A stretch of 64,000 bases of DNA from Minisyncoccota bacterium (lineage in GTDB: Bacteria; Patescibacteriota; Minisyncoccia; UBA6257; 02-FULL-45-10c). Within the stretch, counting starts at the first letter, position 1; every line of letters starts with the position of its first letter. The notes beneath the pieces are model-generated. The model did no database searches. It was not told the origin of the DNA and saw nothing but the letters and a program-made list of their open reading frames with translations. This document shows positions 12,211 through 14,711 of the stretch, one piece after another. The DNA lies in the NCBI GenBank assembly GCA_036517155.1, contig DATDXY010000009.1:2141-66140 (forward strand), written 5' to 3'. A program made the position numbers and the translations under genes.

Positions 12211-12468
12211 ATGCAATCCAAGAATTCAATTATAATAATTTCTGCCATAATGATTATTTTATTAGTAGTTGGCGGAATCTATTATTGGAAGAGCCGAGAC
12301 AAAGAAGCGCCAACCACCGGTGAAGCAATTGAATTATTAACAGAAACGCCGGCATTGACTGATGTTGTAACGCCAACCAATCCATTGGGAGATAAAGTTC
12401 CGGAAGTGAATCCGGTTGATAAAACTAATCCATTCAAGGATACATATAAAAATCCATTTTCTAATTAA
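12211..12468 (+). CDS. small membrane-anchored protein (85 aa)
   Basis: RBS GTAAGGGT before ATG 12211; one N-terminal TM helix then Pro/Thr-rich tail; stop 3 nt before next gene (operon). Confidence 0.4.
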   Translation: MQSKNSIIIISAIMIILLVVGGIYYWKSRDKEAPTTGEAIELLTETPALTDVVTPTNPLGDKVPEVNPVDKTNPFKDTYKNPFSN

Positions 12469-12470
12469 TT

Positions 12471-14711
12471 ATGACGCGGTCTTACATTAATTTTCTTAAA
12501 GACTCTTTTCTTGCGGTGGTTATTGTTTTATTTGCAGCGCTTGTCAGTGTTCTAATTATTCAAAAAACTTACGCTCAAGTGAGTAATAATGCTGCTGTTT
12601 CTTTCAAAAAAGATGGGAACGGACTTTTCACGATTACCATTCGAGATCCACAGGGGATTCAAGAATATTCTTTCAAAGCTCCGGACAAACTTCCTTACGG
12701 AGGTGGCATTACCGGTTGCCCAACAAGCCGAACCATTACTAATGTTGTTTTTAATGATCCGGCGGACTTTACTCCATCTATGGAAGCCTTTGTTGTGGAT
12801 TGCAAAGACAACCGGGGAGAATTCACTATCGCTCCGCCTAAAGACGGAATAACCAATGGAGTGAAAATTGGCACGGAACCAGAGCCAGAAAAAACAGAAA
12901 CCGCGACAACTCCTGCTCCGGCAGCCGAGTTAGAGCAGTCGGAAGAACCAGCTAAACCAGTAAAAGAAATAAGTTATCCAGTGACTGAATTGGGGAGTTG
13001 TAAAAATGAAGATGATTGTCGAGTATATTGTGACAAACCGGGAAATTTGGAAAAATGCATTGTTTTTGCGGAAAGTCATAGTTTGATGAATGGAGAAGAA
13101 GCAGCCAAAGCAAGAAAGTTTAAAGAATCTTTGAATAGCGGCGGTACTCCTGGTGGTTGCAATTCCCAAGCAACTTGTGAATCGTATTGTAATGATGTCA
13201 GCCGCATCGACGAATGTGTTGCGTTTGGAGAAAAAAATGGATTTTTGAAAGGCAAAGAGTTAGAAGACGCGAAAAAAGTTCATGCTGCCATTCAGAGAGG
13301 CGCGAAAATGCCGGGTGATTGCCGAAATAAAACTGCTTGTGAAGCGTATTGCCAAAATTCGGAACATATCGATGAATGCATTACTTTCGCGAAAGAAAAC
13401 GGTTTTATGAGCGAGCAAGAATTACGGGAAGTGGAAAAAATCTTGCCATTAATGAAACGAGGCGAAACTCCGGGCGCTTGCAAGTCCAAAGAACAATGTG
13501 AATCCTATTGCGAGGCAGAAGAACATATGGATGAATGCATCAGTTTTGCGGAGAAAGCCGGCCTACTTTCTGAAGAAGAATTAAAACACGTGGAGCAATT
13601 TAAAAAAACTGGCGGAAAAGGGCCAGGTGGCTGTAAGGGAAAGCAATGTCAGTCGTATTGCGAAAATCCGGGAAACCAAAAAGCTTGCTTTACTTGGGCA
13701 AAAGAAAATGGATTTTTGGAAGAAAAAGATTTGCAGAGAATGGAAGAGGGCAAGCAGCAGTTGAGGCAATCCTTGGAACAAATGCCACCGGAAGCGAGAG
13801 CGTGTGTTGATGAAATTGTGGGGCCAGGTGGTTTAGAGGGCGATTTCTTTGGCGGTCCGGAAATTGGCGAGAAAATAAAATCTTGTTTTGAATCAGCGTT
13901 TTCTGGATTTGGTCCACCTGGCCAGGGTGGTCCAGGGGGTCCCGGAGAACACGGTGGTTTTCCAGGCGGTCCCGGTGGAGGATTCCCAGGTGGTCCTGAT
14001 GGCGGTGGTTTTGGTGGCGGACCAGGTGGATGCAAATCTATTGATGAATGTATGAAGTATTGCCAAGAACACTCAGACGAGTGTAGTGGTTTTGGTCCTC
14101 CGTCTGGTAATGCGGGTGACCGGGGCAGTGATCATGGCGACGGAAGATTCCCGGGTGGTCCTCAAGGTAACGATCAGGGCGAACATCGGGGAGACCCACG
14201 GTATATTGGTCCTCCAATTGAATCCGGCGCTCCAGGAGAATTTGGTGGCACAAGGCCGCCTTGCAACGGTCCGGAAGAATGCCAAAAATTATATGAACAA
14301 GGAGGATTTCCAGATCGCCGAACCGAAAGCCCGATAGATCAATTAAAGGAGGGTTTTCAGCAGCCACCAGAAGGATTTACTCCACCAACGAATATTTCCC
14401 CTGATCAATACCAACAGCAATATCAGCAGCAATTTGAACAACAATTTCAGCAGCAGTATCAGCAAGAATATCAAAAACAATACGAGCAACAATATCAACA
14501 GCAACAAGGTACTTATCCAACTCCAACTTCGGGTGAATATCATCCACCAGAAGGTTCATACACACCACCGCCTTCGAATTCTTATCCTTCGGGAGGTAGT
14601 TATACGCCGCCGGAAGGATCTTATTCGCCACCTCCACCCAGCAGTTATCGATATGGTCCGCAACGGCAATCTTTAGTCGGATCAGTTTTGGATATATTAG
14701 GAGGGAAATAA
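12471..14711 (+). CDS. secreted/membrane-anchored repeat protein: five tandem ~45-aa four-Cys modules, then Gly/Pro-rich, Gln-rich and Tyr-Pro-rich low-complexity regions
   Basis: 746 aa; N-terminal TM/signal (LAVVIVLFAALVSVLII); modules C-x5-C-x3-C-x8-C followed by F(A/G)xxNGF(L/M)..EL; GGPGGPG tract; QQYQQQFEQQFQQQ; YTPPEGSY repeats. Confidence 0.7.
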   Translation: MTRSYINFLKDSFLAVVIVLFAALVSVLIIQKTYAQVSNNAAVSFKKDGNGLFTITIRDPQGIQEYSFKAPDKLPYGGGITGCPTSRTITNVVFNDPADFTPSMEAFVVDCKDNRGEFTIAPPKDGITNGVKIGTEPEPEKTETATTPAPAAELEQSEEPAKPVKEISYPVTELGSCKNEDDCRVYCDKPGNLEKCIVFAESHSLMNGEEAAKARKFKESLNSGGTPGGCNSQATCESYCNDVSRIDECVAFGEKNGFLKGKELEDAKKVHAAIQRGAKMPGDCRNKTACEAYCQNSEHIDECITFAKENGFMSEQELREVEKILPLMKRGETPGACKSKEQCESYCEAEEHMDECISFAEKAGLLSEEELKHVEQFKKTGGKGPGGCKGKQCQSYCENPGNQKACFTWAKENGFLEEKDLQRMEEGKQQLRQSLEQMPPEARACVDEIVGPGGLEGDFFGGPEIGEKIKSCFESAFSGFGPPGQGGPGGPGEHGGFPGGPGGGFPGGPDGGGFGGGPGGCKSIDECMKYCQEHSDECSGFGPPSGNAGDRGSDHGDGRFPGGPQGNDQGEHRGDPRYIGPPIESGAPGEFGGTRPPCNGPEECQKLYEQGGFPDRRTESPIDQLKEGFQQPPEGFTPPTNISPDQYQQQYQQQFEQQFQQQYQQEYQKQYEQQYQQQQGTYPTPTSGEYHPPEGSYTPPPSNSYPSGGSYTPPEGSYSPPPPSSYRYGPQRQSLVGSVLDILGGK
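12984..13775 (+). repeat. tandem in-frame coding repeats (five ~135-nt units) encoding the Cys modules
   Basis: Protein-level periodicity PGxCxxxxxCExYCxxxxxxDECxxFAxxNGF repeated five times; diverged at nucleotide level. Confidence 0.6.

Follow-up and report, generated by a model that had tools for sequence, protein, structure and literature searches.

Helicobacter cysteine-rich proteins (Hcp) are secreted proteins built from Sel1-like repeats, units of about 36 amino acids (aa), each made of two helices and carrying a single Cys pair. Their tandem alpha-helical repeats are stapled by conserved cysteines into an elongated, solenoid-like array that presumably mediates interactions at the cell surface. 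The LPXTG stalk adhesins of Gram-positive bacteria combine a signal peptide, a rigid tandem stalk, distal binding domains and a Pro-rich region near the C-terminus. In Patescibacteria, which are tiny, mostly uncultured bacteria that make up a large share of bacterial diversity and live mostly attached to other cells, the proteins responsible for surface building and attachment are, to our knowledge, largely unknown. Here we describe a gene pair at 12211-14711 (+) of a 64,000-nucleotide stretch (the window) of contig DATDXY010000009.1 from a Minisyncoccota bacterium. It encodes an 85-aa membrane protein and a 746-aa exported protein with five tandem four-cysteine modules. Hcp proteins and stalk adhesins are its nearest functional analogues; it resembles both in overall plan, and none of the features that define them is found in it. 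The module measures about 53 aa and has three helices and four cysteines, unlike the Sel1-like unit, and Hcp proteins are not known to have an obligatory small membrane partner like that of the family described here. The stalk of LPXTG adhesins consists of Ig-like domains with isopeptide bonds, whereas the array here is helical and Cys-rich, and its retention is proposed to depend on a separate small membrane protein.

The gene pair is a self-contained two-gene operon, and it represents a real, ancient, widespread and uncharacterised cassette, probably of the cell surface, that is specific to Patescibacteria. The small open reading frame (ORF) occupies 12211-12468 (+), and the large one (12471-14711, +) starts 2 nt after its stop codon; both lie where an initial annotation of the window had placed them. 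In NCBI records the two products appear as hypothetical proteins from a Candidatus Paceibacterota metagenome-assembled genome, the large one under HEY4499775.1. The five modules span aa 172-432 of the large protein (12984-13766, +), with three predicted helices in each. Those starting at aa 177, 230, 284 and 337 have the exact spacing C-x5-C-x3-C-x8-C, and the fifth, at aa 388, reads C-x4-C-x3-C-x8-C. The initial annotation had counted the modules correctly and had taken the spacing to be invariant, which does not hold for the fifth; the repeat period is 51-54 aa (about 53) rather than the 45 aa or so that it gave. The F(A/G)(E/K)xNGF motif that it placed after every module is exact in modules 2, 3 and 5, and the corresponding residues are FAESHSL in module 1 and FAEKAGL in module 4. 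Identity among the modules of the protein is 24-45%, and the duplication is therefore old. The pattern is no product of chance: a scan of the window in all six frames finds it six times, each time in the large ORF.

The cysteines are strictly conserved in relatives. The exact spacing is present in 651 of 702 modules from the first 120 relatives. All four cysteines are kept in 2,022 of the 2,023 near-full-length modules of 315 family proteins, and pairwise Cys loss does not occur in full modules. The initial annotation had reasoned that poor conservation of these positions in homologues would argue against a structured domain; the opposite was found. Other conserved positions of the module include a PGG turn before the first cysteine (C1), a Tyr or Phe before C3, a Phe (97%) three residues beyond C4 and an Ala one residue further on, a Gly in the loop that follows and a third helix of the EEL/EAKK type. 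An export signal and, behind it, at least four tandem C-x5-C-x3-C-x8-C modules place the window protein in this uncharacterised Patescibacteria family. Its last module, FKKTGGKGPGGCKGKQCQSYCENPGNQKACF, is of the family-typical 'KTGGKGPGGC...NQ..CF' type, is followed by a domain carrying C445 and C472, and aligns with 16 relatives.

AlphaFold2 (AF2) was run on aa 165-480 with an alignment of 101 sequences. The model of the module array is all-helical, with a mean predicted local distance difference test (pLDDT) score of 93.6 and a predicted template modelling (pTM) score of 0.74. It shows three helices per module and a two-helix domain carrying C445 and C472. C1 lies 2-3 residues ahead of helix 1, C2 and C3 are i/i+4 neighbours within this 8-residue helix, and C4 is 4-7 residues into helix 2. 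A Foldseek search with the array gave no PDB match at E<=0.001 (best E = 3.9, to TPR-like proteins), and a fold search of viral models gave none at the same threshold.

The family is large and confined almost entirely to one lineage. A search with the module region returned 357 proteins, down to E = 1e-115, and every named match is a 'hypothetical protein' of the Davies-, Nomura-, Wolfe-, Kaiser-, Colwell- or Pacebacteria, all Patescibacteria. A single-module profile of 51 positions, scored against 1.84 billion cluster representatives, matched 1,860 clusters at E<=1e-3, of which 1,065 reached E<=1e-30; nearly all carry a Patescibacteria label, and the proteins have up to 13 modules and up to 1,555 aa. 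With the last-module alignment as query, a strict pattern scan that covered a single genome from each species located the family in 331 genomes. A few records are deposited as Gammaproteobacteria, Methylomirabilis or Aenigmatarchaeota, labels that we suspect to be binning or labelling errors. The viral-contig scan found no relative. The large protein has no Pfam or NCBIfam match, the module profile and the window protein have no PDB sequence match, and searches of the accessible literature retrieved no published description of the Cys motif or of the family; the published 'CX5CX3C' usage concerns SPASM enzymes, ferredoxins and plant Cys-rich peptides. The module type is thus absent from curated resources, in keeping with the earlier suggestion that it may be new, and the family is already in public databases, unnamed. 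Its supposed extracellular location agrees with the N-terminal hydrophobic leader of 246 of the 263 members. Among the relatives, P0140 has a partial Kazal_1 Pfam match at aa 634-654 (E 4.5e-7), and P0132 and P0135 contain 110-140 cysteines, with extra unclassified Cys-rich regions after the modules.

Secreted surface proteins with Cys-stapled repeats are a known kind, and the cassette adds to such a protein a new, strictly conserved small membrane partner. This protein has no Pfam, NCBIfam or PDB match. Its transmembrane (TM) helix, IIIISAIMIILLVVGGIYYW (12229-12288, +), is a hydrophobic block kept in 31/31 aligned homologues. The C-terminal tail, NPLGDKVPEVNPVDKTNPFKDTYKNPFSN (12379-12465, +), is acidic and has the consensus P-(E/D)-x-N-P ... 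N-P-F-K ... N-P-F; across the 31 homologues P68, N73, P74, N81 and P82 are invariant, and P64, N67 and F83 nearly so. The partner has no Cys, and the triple NP motif appears in the six frames of the window in the small ORF only. The flank preceding the TM helix has a net charge of +2.6 and the tail one of -2.6, and an N-in/C-out topology with an extracytoplasmic tail is therefore predicted. As in the window, a partner gene, whose small TM product of 74-103 aa has the NP-x/NPF tail, lies immediately upstream of the module gene in 4/4 independent loci identified by exact protein look-up and in 57 of 62 evaluable species genomes, so the co-occurrence that the initial annotation proposed to examine is the rule. 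A word-indexed search with the small protein found 4 relatives, and its family was built from genomic loci.

No other gene keeps company with the pair. When the neighbours at 85 loci were compared all against all, no further conserved partner emerged, and the next families occurred in at most 10 loci (the CCA-adding enzyme in 10, RecG in 7). RecG lies divergently upstream of the cassette in the window (8802-10988, -), with a ZIP transporter gene in between, and also in a Colwellbacteria genome (loci L007/L008). The position of RecG is weak residual synteny and no functional link.

From these properties we propose, with confidence that we would put at about even, that the large protein forms a surface stalk, stapled by disulfides, which the membrane partner holds in place. 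It would be exported by the Sec route and its signal peptide removed. The modules, five of about 53 aa here and 4-13 elsewhere, would each fold as three short helices stapled by their four cysteines, most likely through two disulfides made by an MdbA/VKOR-type system. Together, they would make a stiff, elongated and protease-resistant stalk. The stalk would bear exchangeable binding domains, displayed for attachment: an N-terminal Ig-like domain in the window protein, and also a Laminin-G/ConA-like lectin domain in close relatives that share this N-terminal domain (Laminin_G_3, E 1e-25 to 1e-27). Spacer tracts rich in Gly/Pro, Gln and Tyr/Pro and a short amphipathic C-terminal helix would follow. 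The large protein carries neither a sortase signal nor a lipobox, and no segment of it spans the membrane, so the co-translated partner probably retains it at the surface. The NP-x/NPF tail may act as the docking peptide, with PEVNPVDKTNPFKDTYKNPFSN as the candidate peptide. Counts of NP motifs and of modules show no correlation. Docking, if any, probably involves one conserved site, such as the last module, the two-Cys domain or the C-terminal helix. Of the two roles first suggested for the small protein, anchor or chaperone, the anchor fits its topology and conservation and is the predicted one.

A more specific and wider version of this proposal is rather doubtful. It would make the cassette a surface tether used throughout Patescibacteria, in which the NP-x/NPF peptide docks on a disulfide- or metal-stapled helical solenoid of new fold that shows swappable Ig-like or lectin domains, so that the episymbiont attaches to host cells or particles. 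The cassette counts among the more widespread surface gene pairs that are restricted to one lineage, and its module type is found in no curated database. If the stalk-and-anchor arrangement is correct, the module of about 50 aa, the 30-aa docking peptide and the accessory domains would become expressible targets in the study of host attachment, and a new disulfide-stapled helical repeat would be added to the structural repertoire. If the modules bind metal instead, they would constitute an unusual extracellular thiolate array.

The chemistry of the module cysteines can be read in two ways. Two disulfides per module are favoured by the parity of the cysteines, by lone Cys pairs and by the oxidative equipment of the lineage. 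The Cys count of the mature part is even in 46/46 complete family proteins from genomes, where cysteines outside the modules always number 0, 2, 4 and so on up to 12, and in 237 of 246 database members; the window protein has 30. The Ig-like domain and the domain behind the modules each contain a lone invariant Cys pair, and such pairs cannot form metal sites by themselves. A family of MdbA-like thiol-disulfide oxidoreductases is enriched in the candidate phyla radiation (CPR), often beside VKOR (Méheust et al. 2019, PMC6744442). Genes for two peroxiredoxins (AhpC/TSA) and a superoxide dismutase of the Fe/Mn type lie in the window at 15143-15616 (-), 23523-24086 (+) and 24100-24687 (+), a notable oxygen defence for a Patescibacteria genome that suggests exposure to oxygen and bears on whether exported cysteines are oxidised. 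An unlikely alternative is that C1-C4 of each module form an extracytoplasmic tetrathiolate site for Zn, Fe, Cu or a similar metal, which would give a surface array of 5-13 sites for metal buffering, scavenging or redox reactions. Joint retention of the four cysteines would suit such a site. C2 and C3 stand at i/i+4 on a short helix that C1 closely precedes, C4 lies near the beginning of the following helix, and the four could converge on one ion; many Patescibacteria inhabit anoxic water, where thiolates persist; and in the window a divergent ZIP zinc-transporter gene adjoins the cassette. The ZIP gene is, however, not a neighbour in other genomes, which also removes the zinc-transport link that we considered. 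The modules have neither CxxC knuckles nor an invariant His (one position is H or N, roughly 50/50), and Sec export rules out pre-assembled Fe-S clusters. The lone pairs and the even parity outside the modules point to disulfide chemistry in the same compartment, where the CPR-enriched disulfide-forming system and the suggested exposure to oxygen argue in the same direction. The metal- or glycan-binding role first suggested for the modules thus gained no positive evidence, and Cys parity and lone pairs favour structural disulfides.

The proteins could also serve the envelope itself and not adhesion, as a spacer or matrix component in the region of the wall or S-layer. The Pro/Tyr/Gln tracts would lie in the wall, and the small protein would be an assembly factor or chaperone and not an anchor. 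A widespread cassette without conserved functional neighbours suggests such a housekeeping role, SPPPP/Tyr tracts and an amphipathic C-terminus are conserved in many members, and many members lack any accessory binding domain. We nevertheless regard it as improbable: S-layer and wall-matrix proteins are usually poor in Cys, the Pfam search revealed no SLH or other wall-binding domain, and the variable Ig-like and LamG domains resemble ligand-binding cargo. Far less probable still is a peptide system, with the large protein as a polyprotein precursor of defensin-like Cys-rich peptides or as the receptor of a signalling peptide that the small protein releases. The module spacing matches that of the first four cysteines of cysteine-stabilised alpha/beta (CS-alpha/beta) defensins and of the AtDEF-like family (PF25052), C-x5-C-x3-C-x8(-10)-C with the CxxxC pair in a helix, and it accounts for weak AtDEF-like Pfam matches in 36 of 101 relatives, the strongest at 1.2e-8. 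In some relatives the score comes to 25-29 bits against a gathering threshold of 25 bits, although these matches span the signal peptide and module 1 only, and the window protein has no match at E<=1 or E<=0.01. Defensins are single peptides of about 50 aa with a beta-sheet and a CxC formed by their fifth and sixth cysteines, whereas the modules have neither feature and stand in tandem arrays within proteins of 450-1,500 aa; the confident all-helical model likewise speaks against a CS-alpha/beta fold, and membership in the AtDEF-like family is rejected. The pTM value indicates a continuous rigid array and not beads on cleavable linkers, and the linkers are PGG or PPP and not dibasic. As for signalling, a small ORF beside a helical-repeat protein recalls Rap/Phr and AimR/AimP, and the conserved C-terminal peptide could be a ligand. 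Rap and AimR, however, are cytoplasmic TPR proteins without Cys staples, to which Foldseek finds insignificant similarity (E>5), while here both partners face outward and the small protein keeps its membrane anchor and has no evident signal-peptidase-type site.

Several observations weigh against the stalk-and-anchor proposal. Retention of four cysteines without pairwise loss, together with a helix-borne CxxxC that has a further Cys on either side, is equally compatible with a tetrathiolate metal site. The evidence for surface location, for the disulfides and for contact between the small and the large protein is indirect throughout. Docking of one NP motif per module was rejected, as the numbers of motifs and modules are uncorrelated (rho -0.16, p 0.27). 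The Ig-like domain has no specific structural relative, which leaves adhesion to be argued from domain types alone. Finally, promoter-like sites are not commoner in the region than in shuffled sequence, and the promoter call upstream of the operon is no better than chance.

Membership in other described classes was considered and rejected. No Sel1 Pfam match was obtained for the window protein or 101 relatives, and the fold searches gave no significant match. The C-terminus, ...YRYGPQRQSLVGSVLDILGGK, has no LPXTG, no C-terminal TM segment and only a 10-12-residue amphipathic stretch, which excludes the sortase-anchored class, and a lipoprotein is excluded by the absence of Cys from the first 82 residues. 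Fe-S proteins of the SPASM/twitch type do not fit, given the export signal, the lack of a CX2C part in the motif and the lack of a Radical_SAM or SPASM Pfam match. Nor do twin CX3C/CX9C (CHCH-type) proteins, since each module has a single CX3C, with C1 before helix 1 and C4 alone in helix 2.

Outside the modules, the large protein is a mosaic. It begins with a signal peptide (12471-12575, +) with a hydrophobic core at aa 13-30 and without a lipobox Cys or a twin-arginine motif; cleavage is likely after TYA at aa 35, a site set by eye from the AxA-like rule. The Ig-like beta-sandwich domain follows at residues 37-135 (12579-12875, +). It contains the invariant cysteines C83 and C111 and is found again in some family members, where it stands at the N-terminus or behind the modules. 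AF2 predicts eight strands with a pLDDT of 89.9; the domain has no Pfam match and only weak, generic Ig/FN3-like fold neighbours. No homologue turned up when the N-terminal domain was used as the sole query, and its relatives were recovered by local phmmer. An acidic Pro/Thr/Glu linker (12876-12980, +) leads to the modules. The conserved helical domain behind them, with its one Cys pair (13767-13904, +), has helices at 276-286 and 299-313 in the AF2 model.

The C-terminal third contains the low-complexity tracts and the two degenerate module copies noted in the initial annotation, all of which were located. A Gly/Pro-rich tract at aa 479-520 (13905-14030, +) is followed by a short sixth module at aa 521-538 (14031-14084, +), which reads C-x5-C-x3-C-x6-C and lacks helices 2 and 3; this variant occurs 29 times among relatives. 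The second copy, with PPCNGPEEC (14256-14306, +), retains only C1 and C2 (C-x5-C, aa 598-604), and a 'PPCxxxEEC' element is also present in P0016 and P0119. The Gln-rich tract at aa 644-684 (14400-14522, +), YQQQYQQQFEQQFQQQYQQEYQKQYEQQYQQQ, has a Tyr or Phe at every fourth position nine consecutive times, and similar periodic aromatic/Gln tracts are found in P0204, P0010 and the protein of locus L015. A Tyr/Pro/Ser-rich tract (YTPPEGSY, SYSPPPP) occupies aa 685-730 (14523-14660, +). The protein closes with an amphipathic helix motif, QRQSLVGSVLDILGGK (14661-14708, +), and ends in QSLVGSVLDILGGK. Many relatives have a related ending of the 'SLLGxIIxPFxxLLGR' type, and 33 of 50 complete proteins are hydrophobic over their final 16 aa.

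The start of the 85-aa small protein at 12211 is favoured by homologue alignment over the NCBI model of 72 aa, whose initial Met lies within the TM helix; a further in-frame ATG is present at 12193 (12193-12468, +). The weak promoter-like site, TTTGCA-16-TATTAT (12125-12152, +), is located in an AT-rich gap of about 80 nt upstream of the small gene, common to the cassette and the divergent ZIP gene. The longest ORF of the ZIP gene (11379-12248, -), on the opposite strand, extends into the beginning of the small gene. Its true start is probably an internal Met (MQISFGP, about 12131), which would give a divergent intergenic region of about 80 nt. Directly after the stop codon of the large gene lies a 33-nt palindromic hairpin flanked by T/A runs (14712-14744). 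Its predicted RNA fold has a free energy of -17.1 kcal/mol (z = -5.7), and 0 of 200 shuffles were as stable. It can serve as a bidirectional terminator common to the operon and the convergent gene at 14743-15150 (-).

Further features of the window concern its ribosomal RNA genes and other exported proteins. A 23S rRNA match at 31816-34907 (+) measures 3,092 nt against a model of 2,925 nt and may hold an insertion. A 5S rRNA gene follows at 35004-35121 (+), and the 64-kb window has no 16S rRNA gene, so the rRNA genes appear to be unlinked. Two adjacent paralogous secreted proteins of 436 and 456 aa, without Pfam matches, are encoded at 15652-16962 (-) and 16959-18329 (-). Each opens with a signal peptide, behind which stands AW(N/T)NP(S/G)QNPP(S/G)G. 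They share an identical stretch of about 70 aa (NPGAKLEVNGQVKITGG...IFDNGT), whose order is permuted relative to another shared block, an arrangement that points to a recent recombination event between Gly-rich repeat proteins resembling tail fibres. Other exported or envelope-type proteins include a Gmad2 Ig-like protein, encoded by the convergent gene just mentioned, a Germane-domain protein (19465-20019, -), a lamin-tail-domain protein (50734-52143, +) and a DUF4012 protein (59614-61602, -).

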